A stretch of 34,124 nucleotides of DNA from IMG/VR virus record IMGVR_UViG_3300045988_106174. One strand, written 5' to 3'. This DNA is from a virus. Within the stretch, counting starts at the first letter, position 1. Every line of letters begins with the position of its first letter. The notes below the pieces were generated by a model. It was not told where the DNA came from and ran no database searches. It worked only from the letters and a program-made list of their open reading frames with translations. The translations under genes were made by a program, and so were the position numbers. Positions 1 through 34,124 of the stretch are shown one piece after another.

Positions 1-119
1 ACCGCCGCCGTCGCGATCCATCAAAAACGCCTTTGCCATCTTTGCGTAATAGTCCGGGCGATCCACGCCGTACTCGCGCGCGACCGCGCAATAGTCCGAG
101 TAGATCATATTCATCGCCG
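1..119. repeat. Terminal direct repeat, copy 1 (identical to 34006-34124)
   Basis: Base-by-base comparison of the first 119 nt with the last 119 nt shows no mismatch. Confidence 0.95.
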
Positions 120-6123: not shown

Positions 6124-6312
6124 TCACCCCCGAATCAGATACAAAGTTCTGGAGTCTTTGATCTCCAGCGCGTCATATTCCGCGCGGTCGAGGGCGATAA
6201 TGGTGTCGATCTGGGCGGACGAGACATTGCCTTTTCCACCGCCGACCTTGACGTCGCTGACCTCAAAGCACAGCTGCGGTTTTCTGCCGATGTCAAAATG
6301 GATCGCCATCAC
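6124..6312 (-). CDS. Small structural-region protein (62 aa)
   Basis: Its ATG overlaps the upstream stop (ATGA). The ending ...AEYDALEIKDSRTLYLI is a motif often seen at the N-termini of phage fibre proteins. Confidence 0.45.
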   Translation of the reverse strand: MMAIHFDIGRKPQLCFEVSDVKVGGGKGNVSSAQIDTIIALDRAEYDALEIKDSRTLYLIRG

Positions 6313-6629
6313 AGCACCACCTTGCTGATGCTGTCGGCAACGTAGATGTCGCCGACATCGACACCGACCACGACCGGCGGGTCGCCCTTAAATTTCACGC
6401 GGATCTGGACGTGCTGCGACGAGCGCTGCACGGCGAACGTCTCCTGCTGCGTGAGCGGAAACAGGAACGTCCCGCCCTCATCCAGCACCACCTCGCCGGG
6501 GTACAGCTTCCGCATCTTGCCGATCACGAATTCGACTTTGTCGATCGTGGTCATGTCCAGCGGCTTGCCGTTCTGCTTGCCGATGATGGGGATAGCGTAC
6601 TGGTCACCCTGCATGATTATCAAGCTCAT
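6309..6629 (-). CDS. Hypothetical structural protein (106 aa)
   Basis: The start is moved to ATG 6629 (MSLIIMQGDQY...), which has AAGGAGG 7 nt upstream. The longer tracked ORF would have to begin inside the palindrome. Confidence 0.55.
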   Translation of the reverse strand: MSLIIMQGDQYAIPIIGKQNGKPLDMTTIDKVEFVIGKMRKLYPGEVVLDEGGTFLFPLTQQETFAVQRSSQHVQIRVKFKGDPPVVVGVDVGDIYVADSISKVVL

Positions 6630-6647
6630 GCCGCTGCCTCCTTTCTG

Positions 6648-6673
6648 CAAATTTCCCAACGTTGGGAAATTTG
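6648..6673. repeat. Perfect 26-bp palindrome CAAATTTCCCAACGTTGGGAAATTTG, copy 1 of 3
   Basis: It is self-complementary with no spacer. It lies in the 48-bp gap between the stop at 6678 and the start at 6629. The other copies are at 19981-20006 and 25715-25742. Confidence 0.95.
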
Positions 6674-6677
6674 ACGC

Positions 6678-6914
6678 TTATGCCGGGTTGCCAATCTTGC
6701 AGATCACGACCACGCTGCCGCTGACGCGGGCGATGAGCACCCGGTCACCGGCAGCCAGCGTGACCGCTGTGTTGCACTTATAATGCTTTGCCGTCGCCGC
6801 CGTCTGACCGGGAAAGATCAGGCTGACGCCGTCGGCATACTTCGCGCCCACCGTCGCAAGCCCGATCTGCCCGGAGCTAGGCGCGGCTTTTGCTGCGCTG
6901 AAGAGGTCCATCAT
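6678..6914 (-). CDS. Small tail-tip/baseplate-region protein (78 aa)
   Basis: ORF track. It overlaps the upstream stop (ATGA) and has a beta-rich sequence. The family assignment is uncertain. Confidence 0.5.
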   Translation of the reverse strand: MMDLFSAAKAAPSSGQIGLATVGAKYADGVSLIFPGQTAATAKHYKCNTAVTLAAGDRVLIARVSGSVVVICKIGNPA

Positions 6915-16669: not shown

Positions 16670-17837
16670 CGCCTCCTTGATCTAATTTTTTCTGGTCGCC
16701 GATCATGTCTCGCGGGATGTAGTTCTCCAAGATGACCAGCTTATCAAGCCCCTCCCGGGGGCTCAGCCCGAGCCAGTCGCGCGCCTCATTGCCGTCCATC
16801 AAGCCGCGGATGTACTGCGCGTCCGCGACCTCCGCCAGCTCCTTGAGCGTGTAGCTGTACAGGCGGCGTGTGGACATAGTGAAGTACATATCCTCGGAGA
16901 TCAGCAGTTTGCGCGTCAACTCATGGCAGATGATGTTCGCCAGTGTGACCGCCGTCGTGCGGATCATGTGATTGTGCTCGGCGTCCGAGTAGCTGCCGAC
17001 GCCCACCATGTACGGCGTCACGCCGACGATGGAGGCGATCTCGCGTTTATCCAGCTCAACGGAATCCTTCAGCGCCAAGTCGTTCAGGCTGAGGGGTTTG
17101 ACCTGCTGGACCTCCATCAGCTCCGCCGGAATGACCCAAGGATCGCCCGCGGCGCTGCCCGCTATGTATTCGTCGATAAGGCGCTTGCGCCCGGCTTCGT
17201 CGGCAAACTCCTCGGCGAGGGAATCCACCTTGACGATGACGCTCGGCTTCCACTTGTCGGACATAAAGCCCTTTTTGGTCGCCGCCGCCTGCCGGAGGTT
17301 TGCGGTCACATCCCGCAGGCTCACGCGCAGCCCTACACCGCGCCACGGCTGCATCGGGTCGCACCAGCGCTTAAAATGCAGCACACTGTCGGACTCGTAG
17401 CGCCGCCCGCGCCACATCACATAGTAGGTCTGCCCGAGGTCGTCGCTCATGGCGTAGGCGTCCGGCATCGGCTCAAGGTCCGACAGCAGCCCGTTTGCCG
17501 TGTGCGGCAGCATGAATGCACTACCGCAGGAGCTTGTCAGCATCGTCCAGACGATCCAGGACACGAGATCCTTGCGGCTGCCGTTGCGCCACGGCGCGAT
17601 GTCCATAAACCGCGAGAGTTGATTGCGCACGCGCACATCGCCGCTTGCAGTGTTCCGCATGAGCTGGATCGTCGCGTTCGATACGATGTCCGCCAGCCCG
17701 CCGATTGCCGCGAGCACGTCCGGGCTGTCGATCAGCCGCGTGTATCCGGGGACGGACAGCGTGTCCGAGCCCGCCAGCCCGATCATAAATTTTTGCAGCT
17801 CGCTCGAAGCATCGCGTCGCTGCGGTTTGACTCTCAA
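16653..17837 (-). CDS. Portal protein, HK97 family (394 aa)
   Basis: It lies directly after the terminase (ATGA overlap). Its size and sequence are typical of the Phage_portal family. Confidence 0.85.
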   Translation of the reverse strand: MRVKPQRRDASSELQKFMIGLAGSDTLSVPGYTRLIDSPDVLAAIGGLADIVSNATIQLMRNTASGDVRVRNQLSRFMDIAPWRNGSRKDLVSWIVWTMLTSSCGSAFMLPHTANGLLSDLEPMPDAYAMSDDLGQTYYVMWRGRRYESDSVLHFKRWCDPMQPWRGVGLRVSLRDVTANLRQAAATKKGFMSDKWKPSVIVKVDSLAEEFADEAGRKRLIDEYIAGSAAGDPWVIPAELMEVQQVKPLSLNDLALKDSVELDKREIASIVGVTPYMVGVGSYSDAEHNHMIRTTAVTLANIICHELTRKLLISEDMYFTMSTRRLYSYTLKELAEVADAQYIRGLMDGNEARDWLGLSPREGLDKLVILENYIPRDMIGDQKKLDQGGGDNAE

Positions 17838-19951
17838 TCGGCATCATCCTCTCTTGCTTTTTTGTCATACCAGCCAGCCGCCTTATTGCTGGCGGTGAGA
17901 TCTTCGAGATATGCGCACACGGCAAAAACAGAGGCGTCAAAAAGGTCGATGCGCAGATTCTGCTCGATCTTCTGATACATCACCATGTCGTCGGCTTTCT
18001 CAATACCGGCGACGTTCTGCACGCAGTACTCATACGGCTCGGCGTGCAGGTAGTAGAGTGTTCCCTTCTTCGCGCTGGCCTCCAAGTATCGGAAGCCCTC
18101 GGACTTCCGTGTGAAAAGCTGCGGCTGGTCTTTGATCGGGAAGCGCTCGTTTTTCATCTCCACGAAATACTCGCGGCAGAATTTTCGGTCGTGTCCGATC
18201 CGGCGGATCTTAAAGCCGGAGGCGCGCAGCTTTTTGTACCAGCACACCACGTCGTGATAGTTCGTGACGGCGTCGTTGGTCATATCCAGCCAGCCGTCCT
18301 CCTGCCAGCCGAATAGTGGGATCTGATCCTGCTGCGCCTTGATAACAGCCGCCGGGCGCGGAAACCACGCGTGCGGGATGACGATGTCCACGCCCTTGTA
18401 GTGCCCAAAAAGGCATCCAGCGGTCAGGTCGTGCAGCTTCGACAGGTCCGTGCCGCCGTACCAGCGGATCGGCAGCTTCGCGAGCTGCGCGATCGTCCAG
18501 TCGTATTTCTCATCGCTGCGGCGGAACTCCTGAATGTCGAACCACGCCTTGACGGCGTTCGTCGTAACGTTGAGGCTCTTATTCAAAAACTCCGGGCGGA
18601 GCGCGGGATTGTCCGCCGCCATGGCAGCGTCGTTGATCATGTCCTGCGGACGGATGGAATAGCCCCATCCGGGGGACGCCGCCTTCAGCACGGCAGGGTC
18701 GTGCAGGTCCACATCGCCGTTTTCCAGCGTCGGCGCGGAGCAGAGAAAGCAGAAGATCGAATCCGCCGCGTCGCCCGTGACCGTGCCGCGCAGGATTTTG
18801 CGGCAGTAGGCCAAATGCCCCAGCAGGAAGCCGCGTGCATTCGGACCGTTGGACGAGATGATAATGACGAGCTTATTCGTGTATGCCTTGGTCGCGTCCT
18901 TTAGGATCTGATACTGCTGCGGGCTTTTGTAGGTGTGCGCCTCGTCGGCGATGACGATGTTGCAGTTGAAGGAGTCCTGCTTGTCGGGGTTTGCCGCCAG
19001 AGCGTTGATGGAGATCATGCCGTCTCCGATGTCGCCGGAGATGGAGCACTCCATGTTGTTGTCGATGATGCGCAAGCCCTGATTCGGGTCGTCCTTCACC
19101 GTCACGCCGAGGCGGTTGAAGTTGTACTTGAGAAAGTCAAACCCTTCGAGTGCCTGCTTGAGCGCACCGCCGACCTCGTACACCTTCGAGCCGGACGCGC
19201 GCTCGTACATCGCCAGCGCGGCAGCGAGGGAGGCAGCGAACGTCGTTTTGACGTTTTTCCGCGGGATAAAATCAACGGCCTCCTTAAAGCGCCGGATTTT
19301 CGTGCCCGGCAGGTAGAAACCCATGATGTTGTAGACGATGAACTTGTGGTATGGCAGGAGCAGGAACGGCGTGCCGCGCAGCGGCGTCGCGTCCAGGAAC
19401 TCACCCTGCCGGTGACACATCATCGTCTCGATGATGGCAATGATGTCGTTCGCAGGCTCGGACCGAAATTCCCACTTGCCGCAGGCGAGATCTGCGACGT
19501 ATCGCTTGCAGGCAAGCACCGCGTCCTCGCATAGCCCGGACTCGCCGGACAGGACGGAGTTTACAAACGCGTCCACGTCGCGCTGGTACTGGGCAGCGTG
19601 CTCGATCGCATACTCGTGTGCACTCGCGAGGAGCTGCTCGATCTTGCTGTTTCCGGCTGCTGCTGGCTGGAGCTTGGAGCGCGCCTTGTTTAAGCCCGTC
19701 GGCGTCAAGCCGAGCTGATTGCGCAGCCCCTGCACCGTCGCGCGCAGGTCCTCGACCGCCGTCCAGTACGGGCTTTTCGCGGTGTACTCCGCGCCGGTCT
19801 TGTTGACCATCGTGCACACGCGCTGCCCGCCCTGCTTCTTCCACTCCTTTTCGGCGCGGGACAGCTCGCGCTCCGTCTTGGCAAGCTGTTTGATCGTCGG
19901 CTCAAAGATCGCGCCGTATGTGCCGACCAGCTCCATGTCCTTGCGGATCAT
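17834..19951 (-). CDS. Terminase: P27-type small-subunit domain fused in frame to a Terminase_1-type large subunit (705 aa from ATG 19951)
   Basis: The N-terminal ~115 aa (MIRKDMELVGTYG...GLRNQLGLTPTGLNKARSKL) look like a P27-family TerS. The rest (…VLACKRYVADLACGKWEFRSEP…LLPYHKFIVYNIMGFY…VIADEAHTYK…) is TerL. There is no stop codon or plausible internal start between them. The 83 upstream codons of the tracked ORF were rejected. Confidence 0.8.
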   Translation of the reverse strand: MIRKDMELVGTYGAIFEPTIKQLAKTERELSRAEKEWKKQGGQRVCTMVNKTGAEYTAKSPYWTAVEDLRATVQGLRNQLGLTPTGLNKARSKLQPAAAGNSKIEQLLASAHEYAIEHAAQYQRDVDAFVNSVLSGESGLCEDAVLACKRYVADLACGKWEFRSEPANDIIAIIETMMCHRQGEFLDATPLRGTPFLLLPYHKFIVYNIMGFYLPGTKIRRFKEAVDFIPRKNVKTTFAASLAAALAMYERASGSKVYEVGGALKQALEGFDFLKYNFNRLGVTVKDDPNQGLRIIDNNMECSISGDIGDGMISINALAANPDKQDSFNCNIVIADEAHTYKSPQQYQILKDATKAYTNKLVIIISSNGPNARGFLLGHLAYCRKILRGTVTGDAADSIFCFLCSAPTLENGDVDLHDPAVLKAASPGWGYSIRPQDMINDAAMAADNPALRPEFLNKSLNVTTNAVKAWFDIQEFRRSDEKYDWTIAQLAKLPIRWYGGTDLSKLHDLTAGCLFGHYKGVDIVIPHAWFPRPAAVIKAQQDQIPLFGWQEDGWLDMTNDAVTNYHDVVCWYKKLRASGFKIRRIGHDRKFCREYFVEMKNERFPIKDQPQLFTRKSEGFRYLEASAKKGTLYYLHAEPYEYCVQNVAGIEKADDMVMYQKIEQNLRIDLFDASVFAVCAYLEDLTASNKAAGWYDKKAREDDAD

Positions 19952-19980: not shown

Positions 19981-20006
19981 CAAATTTCCCAACGTTGGGC
20001 AATTTG
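19981..20006. repeat. Palindrome copy 2 (CAAATTTCCCAACGTTGGGcAATTTG, one mismatch at 20000)
   Basis: It matches copies 1 and 3 at 25 of 26 positions and lies 30 bp upstream of the terS start codon. Confidence 0.95.
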
Positions 20007-20314
20007 GCTTGCCCGGCGCTTTCGTGTTTCCGTCGAGGGCTCTGCCAGGCGCGGCTGTCTGCTACCGCGCCCAGTAGGAGGTCACTAACTATGGCGCGGC
20101 GGAAGCTGCCCGACTCCCGCCGCCCGGCACAGCCCTCGACGATCTCTCCGCAGGCGTGTCGCCTACGCCCTCGGTGCATCCCCGCAGGCGCGTCGATCAC
20201 GCCCGCGGTGTGTAATTCCTTGTCGCGCGCGGCCCGCGCGCCTTGCCGGTCTCGCGTTACCCCCTTCCCCGATTTTCCCGCAGTCGGAAAAGTGGGCCAA
20301 CCCCGGTGCTTTGG
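20007..20314. other. Non-coding GC-rich region between HNH and terminase: probable cos/packaging-recognition region
   Basis: I see no credible ORF here. There are two direct 14-mers CCGCAGGCG(T/C)GTCG (20148-20161 and 20182-20195), a related CCGCAGTCGG (20278-20287), and a 16-bp inverted repeat (20031-20046 with 20126-20141, 15/16). The HNH, cos, TerS order is typical of HNH-dependent cos phages. Confidence 0.35.
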
Positions 20315-20608
20315 TCAGAACGGCGGCGGCGAATTGGGAGGGGGGATCACTCGTCGCTGCCACGCGAGACCGCGATCGGTCAGCTTGCCGGTCGTGCGAT
20401 CGTGGAAGCTGTTGTGCGCCGCCTGACTGACCGCGATGAGATTCCAGGAGCACCACTGCCAGCCCGGGAAGTCCTCGACCGGGTAGACATGATGCACGGT
20501 CGTTGCCAGCTCGCGGCGACCGTAGCGCGCGGCATCGCGGCAGTTGAATTTATCGCGCCGCAGCACCGCATTGCGCAGGCGCAGCCAGCGCTTACTCTTG
20601 TAGTCCAT
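20315..20608 (-). CDS. HNH endonuclease (packaging-associated, 97 aa)
   Basis: The sequence MDYKSKRWLRLRNAVLRRDKFNCRDAARYGR...TVHHVYPVEDFP...NLIAVSQAAHNSFHDR is a typical phage HNH. It sits immediately upstream of the cos region and terminase. Confidence 0.85.
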   Translation of the reverse strand: MDYKSKRWLRLRNAVLRRDKFNCRDAARYGRRELATTVHHVYPVEDFPGWQWCSWNLIAVSQAAHNSFHDRTTGKLTDRGLAWQRRVIPPPNSPPPF

Positions 20609-20610
20609 GC

Positions 20611-20653
20611 AAAAACAAAAAGCGCCAAGACCTCTCAACGGAGATCCTGGCGC
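20611..20653 (-). terminator. Intrinsic terminator T2 (minus strand)
   Basis: The stem is GCGCCAGGA...UCUUGGCGC with an inner GAGA/UCUC helix. It is followed by UUUUUGUUUUUG, and the U-tract ends 2 nt before the HNH ATG. Confidence 0.55.
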
Positions 20654-25016: not shown

Positions 25017-26045
25017 TCAGCCCTCCTTTTCCAGCGCTGCCGCCATTTTGGCGACTGCGTCCCGCGAGAAACGCAGGAGCTTGTCGGCTTTGTCGGCATC
25101 ACGGAGTTTGACTTTGGTGAGCAGGCCGCAAGCCTTGTTAAAATTCTCAAGCGTTGCCTGGAAAAAGCTCTGGAACACAGCGACGTCGGCATCCGACTGG
25201 ATACTGCTTTCCTTCTGCGCCTTGTTGGCATCTGTTCTGACCCGCTCCAACTCCTTCTGGAGAGCAGCGAGTTTCGCGTTCAGCGCATCCTCTTTGAGTT
25301 TTCCGCTGTTCACATCACTCATAGCCCTTGCGACTTCCGCCTGAAGCTCCACTTGCTTCTTCTCTGCCGCTTTTCGTAGGCGCTCGGCGGAGTCCAGCGC
25401 AGCCTTGTGCTTTTTCTCAGCGGCGGCGAGCGCCTCGGCGACGGCCTTTTCGATCTCTGCCGGGTCGGCTACCTGCACGGCAACTTCTACAGGGCGGTTT
25501 TCCAGCTCGCGGATCTGCTCCGCCTGCTTTTCCGTCCGCTCCGTGAGCTGCACTGCGGCGCTTTGCGCCTCTTCCAGCGCCTTGCGCGCCTCATCGCGCT
25601 CGCGGATCGCCTGCTCCAGCTCACGGGAGGACAGGTGCTCGGCGTCTACCGTCTGTGCAAACTCTTCGCGCTCATCCTCGGGCACTGCCAGCAGCCGCAA
25701 AGCATTGGAAACGCTCAAATTTCCCAACGTTGGGAAATTTGACGTTTTGCCGCCGTATTCCCGCGCGATCTGCATAAAACGGTTAGCCGACGAACTCGAA
25801 AACTCTGTTTCATTTTTCAAAAAATCAAGCCATCCGCCATGACCGACCATTTCCTTTGCCTCGGCGAGGCGCTTACCGATCTCCACGCCGAACCACACCG
25901 TCATGCTCTTCGCCTGCGCGGAGAGGTAGCGGATCTCGCTGCCGAGCGTCTCGGGCGAGCGCGGCACATCGACCGCCTGCCCCGGATGCACCTGCATATC
26001 CTTGCGGGTCTCGTCGGCAAAAATACTCGATACGTCAAATGCCAT
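25017..26045 (-). CDS. DUF3102-domain protein with a long C-terminal coiled coil (342 aa); candidate centromere-binding partner of ParA
   Basis: IGKRLAEAKEMVGHGGWLDFLKNETEFSSSSANRFMQIAREYG matches the DUF3102 signature. The gene begins 4 bp after the parA stop and contains palindrome copy 3. Confidence 0.7.
   Translation of the reverse strand: MAFDVSSIFADETRKDMQVHPGQAVDVPRSPETLGSEIRYLSAQAKSMTVWFGVEIGKRLAEAKEMVGHGGWLDFLKNETEFSSSSANRFMQIAREYGGKTSNFPTLGNLSVSNALRLLAVPEDEREEFAQTVDAEHLSSRELEQAIRERDEARKALEEAQSAAVQLTERTEKQAEQIRELENRPVEVAVQVADPAEIEKAVAEALAAAEKKHKAALDSAERLRKAAEKKQVELQAEVARAMSDVNSGKLKEDALNAKLAALQKELERVRTDANKAQKESSIQSDADVAVFQSFFQATLENFNKACGLLTKVKLRDADKADKLLRFSRDAVAKMAAALEKEG
25715..25742. 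repeat. Palindrome copy 3 (perfect 28-bp TCAAATTTCCCAACGTTGGGAAATTTGA), inside the DUF3102 gene
   Basis: It is self-complementary over 28 bp and encodes ...SNFPTLGNLS... in the DUF3102 frame. Confidence 0.95.
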
Positions 26046-26048
26046 TGC

Positions 26049-26849
26049 TTACGCCCCCTCTCTCAAAAGCTCATCCATCGTGACCGGCGGCGCAATGTAC
26101 TCCTGCACGAATGCGCGGTAGTCATATCCGGCAGCGCTGCGCGGGGAGTACAGTGCGATCGGCTTGCGCTCAAAGGTCATTTCATCCACCTTGTCGGTGC
26201 GGCGGATGACCGTCTGGAATACCGGCAGAATGTTGCAGCCGCGCAGGCTGCTCTCTGCCTGGAGCACGACCGGCGTGTTGCGCCACATCGTGATGAGTGC
26301 CCCGGCAATGCGAATGCTGCTGTTGATACGCTGAATGTTGTCGATTTGTCGCGCCACGTTGGCGAGCCCGCGCACGGAAAATGCGTCGAGCTTGATCGGG
26401 ATGATGACCTCATCCGCGGCAAGCAGCGCTGCGGCGCTTGCGGCGTTAAATGCCGGCGGGCAGTCGAAGATCACAAAGTCATACGCGTCATCCTCCCGGA
26501 TCGCCGTGCACAGATCTGCGAGGACGCGCCCGTGCACGCGGTTGTCAGCGATGTGCGACATATCGAGGTCCATCAGCTCATCCGATGCCGGGATCATGTC
26601 CAGCCCCGGGTAGTCCGTCGCGTACACGTTTTCGGGGTAGTACGGCTCGGCGTCACCGCGCAGGATGTCATCCAGCGTCGAGCCGTCCACGGAGCGCAGA
26701 CCGAAAAATTCGGTTGCATTGCACTGGCTGTCGCAGTCTACCAGTAGCACGCGCTGCTTATGGTCGGCGCACAGGATGTGCGCCATATTGACGGCGGTGA
26801 CGGTCTTGCCGACGCCGCCCTTCAGATTCAAGATTGCAATTGCTTTCAT
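26049..26849 (-). CDS. parA: ParA/Soj-type partition ATPase (266 aa, short type without an N-terminal HTH)
   Basis: It has the deviant Walker A MKAIAILNLKGGVGKTVTAVNMA and the motifs LLVDCDSQCN and FVIFDCPPA. AGGAGG lies upstream of the ATG. Confidence 0.9.
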   Translation of the reverse strand: MKAIAILNLKGGVGKTVTAVNMAHILCADHKQRVLLVDCDSQCNATEFFGLRSVDGSTLDDILRGDAEPYYPENVYATDYPGLDMIPASDELMDLDMSHIADNRVHGRVLADLCTAIREDDAYDFVIFDCPPAFNAASAAALLAADEVIIPIKLDAFSVRGLANVARQIDNIQRINSSIRIAGALITMWRNTPVVLQAESSLRGCNILPVFQTVIRRTDKVDEMTFERKPIALYSPRSAAGYDYRAFVQEYIAPPVTMDELLREGA

Positions 26850-29139: not shown

Positions 29140-29598
29140 TTACCCTTTTGCATCGCTCGTTCCCTCCGCATAGCGCAGCGTATATGCCGCTGAAATAATA
29201 TCGTTCAGTTCGCGCACGATCTGGTCATAGGTCGGGCGCTCTTTTTCATCGATCACGCCATCGTCGGCGATCTGAAGCAGCTCCTTGTCGCGGTTTCGGT
29301 CGGCAAAGCCGATGATGCGGTTGACGAGCTGGATGACCGCCATCGGCAGCGATTGGCGCACTGTGTCCGGCAGGACGGCAAGCCCGTCCGACGTCTGCTG
29401 CAAATGCTTGTACGCAAAATACGCGTCGCCGCACAGATCGACCATCAGGCAGACGTGGTAGTTGCTCGGAATACGCCGGTCTCCCTCCCACGCCTTGACC
29501 GTCTCCACAGACACATAGAGCGCCTCTGCCCACTGCTCCTGGGTCATATGTGCCTTTTTCCGACACGCCGCGCAGATGTTGATGTATGCTTCCTGCAT
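29140..29598 (-). CDS. XRE-family HTH protein with an uncharacterised C-terminal domain (152 aa)
   Basis: The N-terminal part KKAHMTQEQWAEALYVSVETVKAWEGDRRIP is an HTH_3-type motif. Confidence 0.6.
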   Translation of the reverse strand: MQEAYINICAACRKKAHMTQEQWAEALYVSVETVKAWEGDRRIPSNYHVCLMVDLCGDAYFAYKHLQQTSDGLAVLPDTVRQSLPMAVIQLVNRIIGFADRNRDKELLQIADDGVIDEKERPTYDQIVRELNDIISAAYTLRYAEGTSDAKG

Positions 29599-30258: not shown

Positions 30259-30397
30259 ACTCGCCGAGCCTCTGCCAGTCCACCGGGGCGATTGCCCGGG
30301 GAGCGACTTCGATGCTGACCTCGCTCGGTGTCAAGAGCGCTTCCAGTGCAGCGATTCGGCGCTCAAGCTGGCGCAAGCGTTGTCTGCGTACTTTCAT
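30191..30397 (-). CDS. Possible small coiled-coil protein (68 aa, MKVRRQRLRQLERRIAALEALL...)
   Basis: GGAGGG lies 8 nt upstream of ATG 30397. The first half is a plausible helix. The last third is low-complexity and antisense to the plus-strand gene, so the true end is uncertain. Confidence 0.4.
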   Translation of the reverse strand: MKVRRQRLRQLERRIAALEALLTPSEVSIEVAPRAIAPVDWQRLGEFTRRHRNNPPATDDTESDTKAT

Positions 30398-30596
30398 CCG
30401 TGCTTCCCTCCTCGTAGAGATCGTCGATGCTGCATTGCAGCGCCTTCGCCAGCGCTGGGAGCTGGGACGCGCGCGGGTACGCCGCGCCGATCTCCCATTT
30501 TGCGACGGTGCTCCGCTCGACATTCAGCAGATCAGCGAGTTCCTGCTGTTTGAGCTTCGCCCGTTTTCGCATACGGACCAGTCCTTTCGTATACAT
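30363..30596 (-). CDS. Cro-like XRE-family HTH regulator (77 aa; may start at the internal ATG, MRKRAKL...)
   Basis: KLKQQELADLLNVERSTVAKWEIGAAYPRASQLPALAKALQCSIDDLY is a canonical HTH_3. It is the first gene of the leftward operon, divergent from the CI-like gene. Confidence 0.7.
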   Translation of the reverse strand: MYTKGLVRMRKRAKLKQQELADLLNVERSTVAKWEIGAAYPRASQLPALAKALQCSIDDLYEEGSTDESTQTTLAPA

Positions 30597-30686: not shown

Positions 30687-30725
30687 GTTATTAAAAATCA
30701 CAATTGAATTGTGATGATTATTCAC
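30687..30725. promoter_or_regulatory. Two further operator-like sites (GTTAT-N5-ATCAC at 30687-30701; GTGAT-N5-TTCAC at 30711-30725), sharing a 19-bp palindrome at 30697-30715
   Basis: They have the same half-site and spacing as O1. ATCACAATTgAATTGTGAT is a perfect palindrome overlapping the -35 of the rightward promoter. Confidence 0.5.
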
Positions 30726-30732
30726 TTATACT
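30704..30732 (+). promoter_or_regulatory. Rightward (lysogeny) promoter (TTGAAT, 17 nt spacer, TATACT)
   Basis: The -35 is at 30704-30709 and the -10 at 30727-30732, 18 nt upstream of the repressor start codon at 30750. Confidence 0.5.
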
Positions 30733-30749
30733 TAATTCAGGTGATTCCG

Positions 30750-31076
30750 ATGAACAATTTTAGAAGATTCCGCGAAGCAAACAATGAATCACAACAGGAA
30801 ATTGCCGATTTTCTCGGTATCGGCAGAACCACTTACACAAAATATGAAACCGGGCAAATCAAGCCGCCGTACTCAAAGATTGAGAAGATGGCGCAGCACT
30901 GGAGCACAACGGTAGCAATCCTGATGGGCACGGAGGAAACTAAAAACCCCATCGGTGCATCCGATGAGGTTATCAGTGTTGCTGAGGCATTTATGCGCCT
31001 GCCGCCTGAGGCGCAGAAGGAAGCGCGGGCGTATCTCGACTACCTGAAGCAGCGATATAAGCGGCAAAAAGGCTGA
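30750..31076 (+). CDS. CI-like XRE-family repressor (108 aa, no peptidase domain)
   Basis: The start is at ATG 30750 (AGGTGA 5 nt upstream). It has the HTH_3 motif SQQEIADFLGIGRTTYTKYETGQIKPP and a short helical C-terminus. It is the first gene of the plus-strand lysogeny module. Confidence 0.7.
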   Translation: MNNFRRFREANNESQQEIADFLGIGRTTYTKYETGQIKPPYSKIEKMAQHWSTTVAILMGTEETKNPIGASDEVISVAEAFMRLPPEAQKEARAYLDYLKQRYKRQKG

Positions 31077-32087: not shown

Positions 32088-32564
32088 TTGAAACCTCGAA
32101 TTTCAGAGCTTTGCAGAAAGAACAAAGATACGATGAATCCGCGCAGGACCAACGAGGATCTGGCAGAGCGCACAAACCTGAGCCTGAACACCGTGGCGGG
32201 CTTCCTGCGCGGCGAGGTCTCAAATCCGGGCGTCTATACCGCCGGACCGATCTGTCGTGAGACCGGCGTGTCGCTGGACGACTACTTCGACATCACCACG
32301 CCAAGCCGCGAGGCGAGCGAGGAAGCCCGGCAGCTCGCCTCGGAGGTAGCGCTGCTCAAGGCAAAGAATGAGGGCTTGCAGCACGAAAATGCGAATCTGC
32401 GCGTCTCGCTGCGGATGCACCGCTTCACGACCGGCGTGCTCCTTTGTATCGTTGCTGCGGCGGCGATCGCTCTGCTGGTCGACGTCCTCAACCCCGATGT
32501 CGGCTGGATTCGCCGCGCGCTGACGCGTACGCAGCAGGTACTACAGGGGGTGCAACATCTGTGA
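32088..32564 (+). CDS. Membrane-anchored XRE-type HTH protein (158 aa: HTH, coiled coil, TM helix)
   Basis: The TTG start has AAGGA 8 nt upstream. It has the HTH NEDLAERTNLSLNTVAGFLRGEVSNP, a heptad region (ASEVALLKAKNEGLQHENANLRVSL) and a TM helix (GVLLCIVAAAAIALLV). Its stop overlaps the integrase GTG (GTGA). Confidence 0.6.
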   Translation: MKPRISELCRKNKDTMNPRRTNEDLAERTNLSLNTVAGFLRGEVSNPGVYTAGPICRETGVSLDDYFDITTPSREASEEARQLASEVALLKAKNEGLQHENANLRVSLRMHRFTTGVLLCIVAAAAIALLVDVLNPDVGWIRRALTRTQQVLQGVQHL

Positions 32565-33708: not shown

Positions 33709-33748
33709 GAAAAAGCACCGTAAAACACATGTTTTACGGTGCTTTTTT
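33709..33748. terminator. Bidirectional intrinsic terminator (13-bp stem)
   Basis: AGCACCGTAAAAC-acat-GTTTTACGGTGCT is flanked by an A5 run and a T6 run. It lies downstream of int on plus and directly after the tRNA-like 3' end on minus. Confidence 0.65.
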
Positions 33749-33797
33749 GGTCCGAGTGACTGGATTCGAACCAGCGGCCTCTTGAACCCCATTCAAA
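33748..33797 (-). other. attP core: 3' 50 nt of a tRNA-Pro(GGG) (anticodon arm to CCA), not a complete tRNA
   Basis: The minus strand reads TTTGA-ATGGGGT-TCAAG (anticodon arm with U33, anticodon GGG, G37), then AGGCC, then GCTGG-TTCGAAT-CCAGT (T arm), then CACTCGG-A-CCA. The implied C1:G72 pair is typical of bacterial tRNA-Pro. No D arm or 5' acceptor strand lies upstream. Confidence 0.65.
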
Positions 33798-33931
33798 TAC
33801 GCGCGTCGCAGACTTGTTTGAAAATATGCTCGTATTGTAGCATATTCCCCGAAAATCATCAATATACCATCAGTATTTGTCGCTTTTTATTCCGAAGTTT
33901 ATACAACACAAAAAGCGATAAACGACATCGG

Positions 33932-33957: not shown

Positions 33958-34124
33958 TCATTTTTCCGCGATGCACCGATAATACGCCGCGATTTTCTTT
34001 TCCGTACCGCCGCCGTCGCGATCCATCAAAAACGCCTTTGCCATCTTTGCGTAATAGTCCGGGCGATCCACGCCGTACTCGCGCGCGACCGCGCAATAGT
34101 CCGAGTAGATCATATTCATCGCCG
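33958..34124 (-). CDS. C-terminal part of the wrap-around hypothetical gene (see 1-432); 34006-34124 duplicates 1-119
   Basis: The TGA is at 33960-33958. The frame is continuous with the minus-strand frame that leaves the window at position 1. Confidence 0.6.
   Translation of the reverse strand, partial: AMNMIYSDYCAVAREYGVDRPDYYAKMAKAFLMDRDGGGTEKKIAAYYRCIAEK
34006..34124. repeat. Terminal direct repeat, copy 2 (identical to 1-119)
   Basis: Exact 119/119 identity with the window start. Confidence 0.95.

Follow-up and report, generated by a model that had tools for sequence, protein, structure and literature searches.

We analyzed the 34,124-nucleotide stretch of viral DNA filed as IMG/VR virus record IMGVR_UViG_3300045988_106174 (here called the window, at its full length), in which one palindrome of 24–28 bp occurs three times: in the tail-gene region (copy 1), ahead of the terminase gene (copy 2) and inside a gene for a protein of the DUF3102 family (copy 3). 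Comparison of this gene with its relatives suggests that the palindrome is probably the cognate DNA site of a dimeric DUF3102 protein, that the in-gene copy is the ancestral one and that protein and site have been inherited as a unit. That DUF3102 binds the site, that it does so as a dimer and what binding would bring about are what we infer from the observations below. A literature search found no published function for DUF3102 or for these palindromes, and DUF3102 is mentioned there only incidentally.

A palindrome inside the DUF3102 gene

Viral contigs and a set of genomes, one for each species, were searched by protein similarity for DUF3102 loci, and the DNA was read at the homologous codons. 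More than 200 DUF3102 genes, found in Oscillospiraceae and Streptococcus phages, in Bacillales plasmids and in an E. coli Mu-like prophage, carry at these codons differing palindromes of 23–24 bp built on the template AAAT-N5-AACGTT-N5-ATTT. A set of 147 loci contained 69 distinct 24-mers, 9 of them perfect, 16 with 11/12 arm pairs and 14 with 10/12, and followed the somewhat wider template AAAT-N5-(C/A)A(A/C/G)CG(T/G/C)T(G/T)-N5-ATTT. The arms include TTCCC/GGGAA, TATTC/GAATA, TCGTC/GACGA, CCGTC/GACGG, CCCGC/GCGGG, TCGCA/TGCGA and others, and the encoded peptide shifts with them (SNFPTLGNL, ANYSTLNNL, TNSSALTNL, ANPSPVTDL, PNPAPVRDL, RNSQALANL). Arm complementarity was 10.5/12, compared with 7.5 ± 0.2 when left arms were paired with the right arms of other genes; at the variable positions 5–10 it was 5.26/6, compared with 2.97 ± 0.19 after re-pairing, with 3–4 Watson–Crick pair types per position. 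The non-Watson–Crick pairs are not dominated by G·T (12/69 of these pairs), and the codons used for NFPTLGNL are rare ones (P = 2.6e-6 under phage codon usage; CCA 8.5%, TTG 8.8%, GGA 12%); both observations point to DNA, and not RNA or protein, as the level of selection. Across 2.37 Mb of DUF3102 loci we counted 112 palindromes of at least 11/12, of which 50 lie exactly at the in-gene position. The exact 24-mer of the window also occurs in the DUF3102 gene of a PcfJ-linked, not ParA-linked locus (L111, 10290; an uncultured Oscillospiraceae metagenome-assembled genome, MAG) whose N-terminal domain is 54% identical, so the same allele occurs in distant backgrounds. A preliminary description of the window, made before these comparisons, had read the palindromes as sites for a dimeric DNA-binding protein; the covariation and the rare codons support this, in that the palindromes appear to behave as DNA-level sites.

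In the window itself, the 24-mer AAATTTCCCAACGTTGGGAAATTT is present exactly at 6649–6672 and 25717–25740 and with one mismatch (A to C at 20000) at 19982–20005. By inspection of the sequence, perfect palindromy extends over 26 bp in copy 1 and 28 bp in copy 3, and copy 2 is a 26-bp palindrome with the one internal mismatch (Table 1). Pattern searches found no further copy in the window, even with 6 mismatches allowed, and no match appeared in 100 dinucleotide-preserving shuffles (0 expected by chance vs 3 observed). The preliminary description had reported these three places and no others, flanks common to pairs of copies and a repetition beyond chance, all of which hold up. It did not see that copy 3 is genic, a point on which the present interpretation turns: this copy falls within the DUF3102 open reading frame (ORF), at about codons 101–109, where the coding (minus) strand reads TCA AAT TTC CCA ACG TTG GGA AAT TTG, or S-N-F-P-T-L-G-N-L.

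The DUF3102 protein starts with a short extension and a predicted ParB/Noc-like helix-turn-helix (HTH) domain (aa 29–150), continues as a long coiled coil and ends in a helical domain; its match to the DUF3102 hidden Markov model (HMM) reaches 129.3 bits (cut-off 24.4) over residues 29–150. In the structure model, the residues encoded by the palindrome form a segment of low confidence, a loop with a short helix, that connects a long helix to the helix 'SVSNALRLLAVP' and directly precedes the predicted ParB/Noc-like recognition helix. An AF2 model of the N-terminal domain alone was well defined (pLDDT 89.7, pTM 0.78), and a Foldseek search with it returned 1vz0, 4umk, 7bnr and 6y93 (probability 0.92–0.99, TM 0.50–0.59, E 0.1–0.7), with Raf1 as the top match; the ParB-family structures among the matches are Thermus Spo0J, a Helicobacter Spo0J–parS complex, Myxococcus ParB and the Noc DNA-binding domain on its site. 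The best sequence-profile match in the PDB aligned the ParB HTH 'STVANALRLLALP' to DUF3102 'SVSKALALLAVP' (E = 0.1), and viral structure matches beyond the DUF3102 family include proteins annotated as ParB-like. The full-length model gave only coiled-coil noise in the same type of fold search. No ParB/Srx CTPase domain was found in DUF3102, for which Pfam gives DUF3102 alone.

In the mechanism we propose, the primary site would be the one in the DUF3102 gene, spelled by the codons of the loop and short helix that lead into the recognition helix. With the site embedded in the codons of its own reading head, recombination could not part the two, and site and reading head would diversify together as specificity alleles.

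Allele series in Streptococcus phages, plasmids and satellites

A relaxed pattern search returned a related palindrome, AAATTACCCAACGTTGGGTAATTT, in low-GC contigs, and 80 Streptococcus-type DUF3102 genes were then gathered with peptide patterns outside the palindrome. Their proteins are 77–100% identical to each other, and the Streptococcus-phage homologue scores 35.6 bits against the DUF3102 HMM (cut-off 24.4). These 80 genes hold 16 in-gene palindrome alleles, all of at least 10/12 and 8 of them perfect, and the proteins vary most at the residues that the palindrome encodes (75, 76, 79 and 80) and in the preceding helix (47–71). No extra copies of the cognate allele were found within ±6 kb of the Streptococcus-phage DUF3102 genes. 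Farther afield, the DUF3102 gene of Alicyclobacillus plasmid p1 carries AAATACGACAGCGCTGTCGCATTT (11/12) and that of a Cytobacillus plasmid a 10/12 version, while an E. coli Mu-like prophage (L331 3872–4792, plasmid pF16EC0470-1, CP088398) has the perfect 24-bp AAAACGCTCAGCGCTGAGCGTTTT at the homologous codons, encoding K-R-S-A-L-S-V-L, in a gene flanked by ner-like HTH genes and by DDE transposase and AAA ATPase genes.

Palindromes of the same template were also found outside genes. Streptococcus satellite prophages carry non-coding arrays of ~5–9 different 24-bp palindromes (AAAT-N5-AACGTT-N5-ATTT), spaced ~30–100 bp apart and located either in the interval that separates a cI-like repressor gene from int or ahead of Fic/Abi-like cargo plus int (Table 1); satellite L185 is identical to Javan373 (MK448458) over the queried array region. 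Two array members, AAATTACCCAACGTTGGGTAATTT and AAATCGTTCAACGTTGAACGATTT, are identical to in-gene DUF3102 alleles, and the latter lies inside DUF3102 genes in 20 contigs. At up to 3 mismatches, 14/17 phage alleles match the arrays, compared with 20/200 random-arm palindromes of the same template. Moreover, a prophage (L265) and satellite L185 in the same host genome have an allele in common within 2 mismatches. These matches are evidence that the palindromes may be read in trans, allele by allele. We also considered the arrays as CcpA cre or LacI-family operators and rejected this reading, as one member fits the cre consensus and most do not. A literature search for satellites with ParB or palindromes found nothing relevant.

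Partner genes, the two additional copies and genome form

Partner genes were counted by HMM-based co-occurrence, with the Streptococcus loci examined within ±6 kb. Among 136 Oscillospiraceae-type DUF3102 loci, ParA was found at 31, a PcfJ-like protein at 109 and an HUH Rep-like protein at 94; at the 80 Streptococcus-type loci, all three counts were 0. The sole constant across both sets is the DUF3102 gene, and most ParA-less loci keep the in-gene palindrome. The preliminary description had favored a centromere-type site for a ParA/DUF3102 pair, with an operator of another phage HTH protein or a hairpin target for the HUH Rep-like protein as alternatives, and had suggested correlating the motif with each candidate protein in relatives. 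This correlation favors DUF3102 and goes against ParA and HUH: from the centromere proposal, DUF3102 is retained as the partner and ParA is lost as the defining component, given the counts above and the integrated relatives described below. The HUH proposal fails at the 80 Streptococcus loci, none of which has an HUH homologue in range, and the operator proposal fails in that no other gene is constant across the family. Palindrome quality does follow the neighboring gene, which may be a clade effect: all 31 ParA-linked loci carry palindromes of at least 11/12, and the 51 loci with at most 9/12 are all without ParA, 49 of them with PcfJ.

Several features of the DUF3102 neighborhoods are recorded here in their own right (loci L046, L072, L111, L136, L120, L241, L329 and L332; L247 and L330). 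The PcfJ-like protein (PF14284) is a recurrent partner and is also found on Cytobacillus and Clostridium butyricum replicons, with an AcrIIA9-family gene adjoining it on the Cytobacillus plasmid. An ORF6C-domain protein is encoded directly downstream of DUF3102 in Streptococcus phages and on Alicyclobacillus plasmid p1, and the DUF3102 proteins of L134 and L139 carry a fused Cys-rich domain at the N-terminus.

In the window, ParA is encoded directly upstream of DUF3102 in the same operon, its gene ending 4 nt before the DUF3102 start, and is preceded by DnaB and an HTH_36 initiator-like gene. Measured against type I ParABS systems, the locus has a Walker-type ParA beside a putative DNA-binding partner and a palindrome inside the second gene of the par operon; that partner has no ParB/Srx CTPase domain, its N-terminus being a 28-aa disordered peptide, and the site does not track ParA. 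Among the sequences aligned, a disordered N-terminal extension of ~25 aa (MAFDVSxI...) is confined to ParA-linked lineages and may be a peptide that contacts ParA. For the window lineage, a role coupled to ParA is possible; this distribution speaks for some coupling, as does the high palindrome quality at every ParA-linked locus (31/31).

Most window genes lie on the minus strand. Copy 1, placed by the preliminary description between two tail genes, does occupy a gap in the tail region, bounded more precisely by the stop codon of a 78-aa ORF (6678–6914) and the Shine–Dalgarno sequence of the 107-aa ORF, whose ribosome-binding site is 7 nt downstream of the palindrome; a 348-aa ORF with a tail-protein match adjoins the two. 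Copy 2 lies 30 nt upstream of the ATG (19951) of a TerS–TerL fusion gene, in a ~360-bp non-coding gap after an HNH gene (20315–20638), which presumably contains cos or the start of the late operon. The fusion joins a Terminase_4 small-subunit domain (residues 6–87), a TerL ATPase and a nuclease in one 705-aa ORF. In a terminator scan, neither copy 1 nor copy 2 gave an intrinsic terminator with the full palindrome as its stem, and neither has a U-tract, in agreement with the earlier view that these are not ordinary terminators; the only match nearby (plus strand, 19993–20018) is based on another stem, which overlaps copy 2 in its right arm. No Rfam 15 family reached its gathering score in the window, and nothing relevant was found in the satellite loci.

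Copies 1 and 2 are confined to the closest relatives, namely IMG/VR contig 071693, metagenome contig OIYO01000396, MAG L097 and several short contigs; OIYO01000396 carries all three copies, and the copy 2 site is also present in 071693 and L097. Copy 2 is absent from L001 and L007, two relatives with 64%-identical DUF3102 that have ParA and the identical in-gene 24-mer. Copy 1 is exact in 8 further contigs, including ones whose downstream protein is 72–74% identical, which is weak evidence of selection because the immediate surroundings are also conserved. Used as anchors for copy 1, homologues of the 107-aa tail gene were found at two loci only in the viral collection, and the distant one (42% identical) has no palindrome. 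Relatives with the variant allele AAATTATTCA(A/G)CG(T/C)TGAATAATTT have one in-gene copy per contig and none at the tail or terminase positions. Copies 1 and 2 are thus best read as lineage-specific additions. Directly after the position equivalent to copy 1, L003, L204, L211 and L213 have a 43-nt insertion with a second, unrelated inverted repeat, GATGTTTTGTTG...CAACAAAACATC. A search of GenBank for near-identical phage genomes returned only short unannotated fragments.

According to the proposed mechanism, this lineage would have gained two copies, ~30 nt upstream of the terminase gene and ~7 nt upstream of a tail-gene ribosome-binding site, so that early-expressed DUF3102 would occupy three places on a 34-kb circle. 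A double use with the adjacent ParA, by analogy with KorB/IncC (see below), is plausible: DUF3102 would mark the phage DNA for ParA-dependent positioning and, bound ahead of the late genes, would act as a roadblock or as a regulator.

The ends of the window (1–119 and 34006–34124), an ENA metagenome contig, form an exact terminal direct repeat of 119 nt, which equals the assembler k-mer length (the contig name begins k119) and shows that the window is a circular assembly, i.e., a 34,005-bp genome with exactly three copies. This circular assembly could reflect an episomal or replicative form. The window also encodes a tyrosine integrase, whose gene is followed by a terminator-like palindrome, ACCGTAAAACACATGTTTTACGGT (33717), with a T-run, and by a tRNA T-arm fragment, GGTTCGAATCC (minus strand, 33762–33772); relatives carry ACCGCAAAACGTATGTTTTGCGGT. 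A tRNA scan found no complete tRNA gene in the window, and 33717–33800 is likely the attP for integration into a tRNA gene. A relative with the gene order ParA–DUF3102–x–PcfJ is integrated beside the host cotJ and TGT genes in a 148-kb contig. Taken together, integrase, attP layout and integrated relative mean that plasmid-prophage partition is not required by the data. A ParA–DUF3102 relative (L241/L242, 1992–3443) has a large serine recombinase in place of the tyrosine integrase and lies beside cotJA/cotJB and a 35-aa Mn-catalase (cotJC-like) fragment, which suggests insertion into a sporulation gene.

Table 1 Positions of the palindrome copies, the genes discussed and the satellite arrays (window coordinates unless a locus is named).
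Feature	Position	Strand	Description
Copy 1	6648..6673		26-bp perfect palindrome, gap in tail-gene region
Copy 2	19981..20006		26-bp palindrome, internal mismatch C at 20000, non-coding HNH–terminase gap
Copy 3	25715..25742		28-bp perfect palindrome within DUF3102 gene; probably the ancestral, family-wide copy
107-aa tail-region gene	6309..6632	-	No family match
TerS–TerL fusion gene	17834..19951	-	Pfam Terminase_4, TerL_ATPase, TerL_nuclease; start just downstream of copy 2
DUF3102 gene	25017..26045	-	342 aa; Pfam PF11300, E 1.3e-37; proposed binding protein
DUF3102 codons 1–28	25962..26045	-	Disordered N-terminal extension MAFDVSSIFADETRKD...; residues 1–26 pLDDT <50
ParA-type Walker ATPase gene	26049..26849	-	266 aa, KGGVGKT motif; Pfam AAA_31 (7.9e-40) and CbiA; PHROG 164 'ParA-like partition protein'
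Satellite array, L185	1220–1565		Non-coding palindrome array
Satellite array, L184	7900–8095		Non-coding palindrome array
Satellite arrays, L186–L189 and L240			Non-coding palindrome arrays

Competing explanations and known systems

Several observations weigh against DUF3102 being the reader of the palindrome or against the roles proposed for its binding. Covarying arms with a fairly constant center and ends would also be expected from a reader of hairpins or cruciforms, and alleles whose arms differ have almost the same recognition helix. The ParB/Noc similarity is weak by E-value (0.1–0.7 in Foldseek, 0.1 in the HMM comparison), with a top structural match, Raf1, that is not DNA-binding. Large PcfJ-linked clades keep the DUF3102 gene with decayed palindromes (8–10/12), which implies that the site is dispensable for some members. 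Copies 1 and 2 are found only in the closest relatives, where the region around them is well conserved, so that their own conservation is hardly informative on selection; a promoter scan found no sigma-70-like promoter at either copy, leaving a transcriptional role without direct support, and the integrative appearance of the phage weakens the need for partition.

A strict centromere, with the palindromes as parS-type sites for ParA-driven segregation of a plasmid-like prophage and DUF3102 as the centromere-binding protein, appears unlikely to us. It would account for the adjoining ParA gene in the same operon, the predicted ParB/Noc-like fold, the contig assembled as a circle, and the near-perfect palindromes and N-terminal extension of ParA-linked lineages, and sites inside or next to a par operon as well as dispersed phage-plasmid sites are known arrangements (N15 IR1–4, PMC7205306). 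On the other hand, ParA is missing at 105/136 Oscillospiraceae-type and 80/80 Streptococcus DUF3102 loci, DUF3102 has no ParB/Srx CTPase domain, and the 64%-identical relatives have ParA yet only the single in-gene copy; the tyrosine integrase, the attP-typical T-arm fragment and the ParA–DUF3102 relative integrated in a 148-kb contig also speak against it. The main rival to DUF3102 as the reader would be a nuclease, recombinase or HUH Rep-like protein that recognizes a cruciform or single-stranded DNA hairpin by its shape and its constant center and ends. Free variation of the arms, with palindromy, the central (A)ACGT(T) and the outer AAAT/ATTT retained, would suit such a protein, as would ~9 different arms side by side in one satellite array, the HUH Rep-like gene in the window and at 94/136 Oscillospiraceae-type loci, and the RecU or RusA resolvases near some loci. 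We nevertheless regard it as quite improbable, since the Streptococcus-phage loci, which have the best palindromes, show no HUH homologue within ±6 kb at any of the 80, since the allele-by-allele arm matching in the satellite arrays fits reading of sequence and not of shape, and since the constant location in the DUF3102 gene would be left unexplained.

Replication offers a further explanation, of the lambda O/ori type, in which DUF3102 would be an origin-binding protein, the in-gene palindrome the phage origin and the arrays captured origins. Each gene has a single palindrome and no iteron array, however, no adjacent AT-rich unwinding element was seen on reading the sequence, copies 1 and 2 lie in late-gene gaps, and every context examined has a separate initiator or replisome organizer and a helicase or loader (HTH_36 and DnaB in the window, Phg_2220_C and an IstB-like protein in the Streptococcus phages). 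This makes an origin very unlikely, even though the site lies within the gene of its presumed binder, in a linker-like segment with type-specific hypervariability as in lambdoid O/ori, and DUF3102 is encoded in or beside the replication module. Little credence can be given to an RNA-level element, i.e., an mRNA hairpin controlling translation, processing or stability of the DUF3102, terminase and tail-gene messages: copies 1 and 2 do lie on the transcribed strand 7–17 nt upstream of Shine–Dalgarno sequences, with predicted stems of 11–13 bp and z = -4.3 against shuffles for the in-gene context, but contexts 1 and 2 give z = -1.7 and -1.3, G·U pairs are not enriched (12/69), perfect palindromy with zero spacer is unnecessary for an RNA hairpin, and there is neither an Rfam match nor a U-tract. 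Least credible of all is an operator for one of the other phage HTH proteins (XRE-type; 29140–29598, 30363–30596, 30711–31076 and 32088–32564). XRE dimers typically use palindromic operators, and homologues of the protein at 29140 are 80% identical in relatives with the same 24-mer; the regulatory region between the HTH genes, however, holds no copy, and conservation at one position of the DUF3102 gene across phyla is not matched by conservation of the regulators there.

Returning to DUF3102 as the reader of its own in-gene site, a broader and distinctly speculative extension, which we hold to be doubtful, is that DUF3102 and the in-gene palindromes form a widespread, fast-diversifying 'self-addressed' recognition system of temperate phages and plasmids, with the arrays gathered by satellite and prophage elements serving as multi-allele sensors of, or decoys for, helper or invading phages. 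If this were true, early DUF3102 from a helper or invading phage would be captured at the array upstream of the satellite integrase or of Fic/Abi-type cargo; capture would switch on excision or defense, or would titrate the phage protein, and allele diversity would be the trace of a phage–satellite arms race. In any case, DUF3102, a domain of unknown function that is widespread in Bacillota phages and plasmids and reaches E. coli Mu-like prophages, gains a testable candidate job, namely binding the palindrome in its own gene. The natural allele series, which comprises 16 alleles among Streptococcus phages that are close relatives and dozens among Oscillospiraceae phages of the gut, could show how a ParB-like fold reads DNA. 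Satellite arrays that mirror phage alleles point to an unrecognized route for sensing, exploiting or blocking helper phages, and streptococcal helper–satellite specificity becomes directly testable. The 24-bp template can also serve as an annotation marker for DUF3102 systems.

Among known systems, the best analogy for the three-copy arrangement may be KorB of plasmid RK2 (IncP-1), a ParB-type HTH protein that is encoded next to its ParA partner IncC and acts in both partition and gene control through dispersed palindromic OB sites. These sites are 13 bp long, some just upstream of genes and some inside genes, and KorB has a ParB/Srx CTPase domain. The window resembles KorB/IncC/OB in its ParA neighbor and dispersed palindromes and differs in that DUF3102 is without the CTPase domain, in the length of the site (24–28 bp vs the 13-bp OB) and in having the site written into codons of the DNA-binding domain. 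We know of no allele series for KorB sites, nor of a KorB site within the codons of its own DNA-binding domain. To Spo0J/parS and Noc/NBS, DUF3102 may be related by the modeled fold of its DNA-binding domain and by its palindromic site, and the first parS described lies inside the spo0J gene. The outer half-sites at 25717–25740 (ATTTCCC...GGGAAAT) are identical to the half-sites of the Bacillus Noc-binding site ATTTCCCGGGAAAT, set 6 bp further apart in DUF3102 by the extra AACGTT. Unlike Spo0J and Noc, DUF3102 has no CTPase domain, contains a long coiled coil, differs in its C-terminal domain and in most family members comes without ParA.

The nearest phage precedent for the window is the Sop system of N15, a temperate phage with a ParA/ParB-type pair and the separate palindromic sites IR1–IR4 (PMC7205306). 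The N15 prophage is obligately a linear plasmid, and its SopB is a genuine member of the ParB family; the window phage differs in having an integrase and integrated relatives. Some of the N15 IR sites lie in the late-gene region. Lambda O likewise has its site inside the binder's gene, in a change-tolerant segment that co-varies by type, and DUF3102 shares with it this cis arrangement and type-specific co-variation; O is an initiator acting on four iterons and an AT-rich region, whereas DUF3102 systems have one palindrome and separate initiator and helicase genes. For the Streptococcus arrays, a possible analogy is offered by the promoters of satellite P4 that respond to P2 Ogr, i.e., satellite sites for a helper protein. 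Those are single sites for one activator family, unlike arrays of ~5–9 different alleles upstream of int or cargo genes. Systems of this general kind, in which a ParB-like DNA-binding protein has its palindromic site within its own gene, are known; what appears to be new is that the site is written into the codons of the recognition module, that the alleles form an extensive series and that satellites carry mirror-image arrays.

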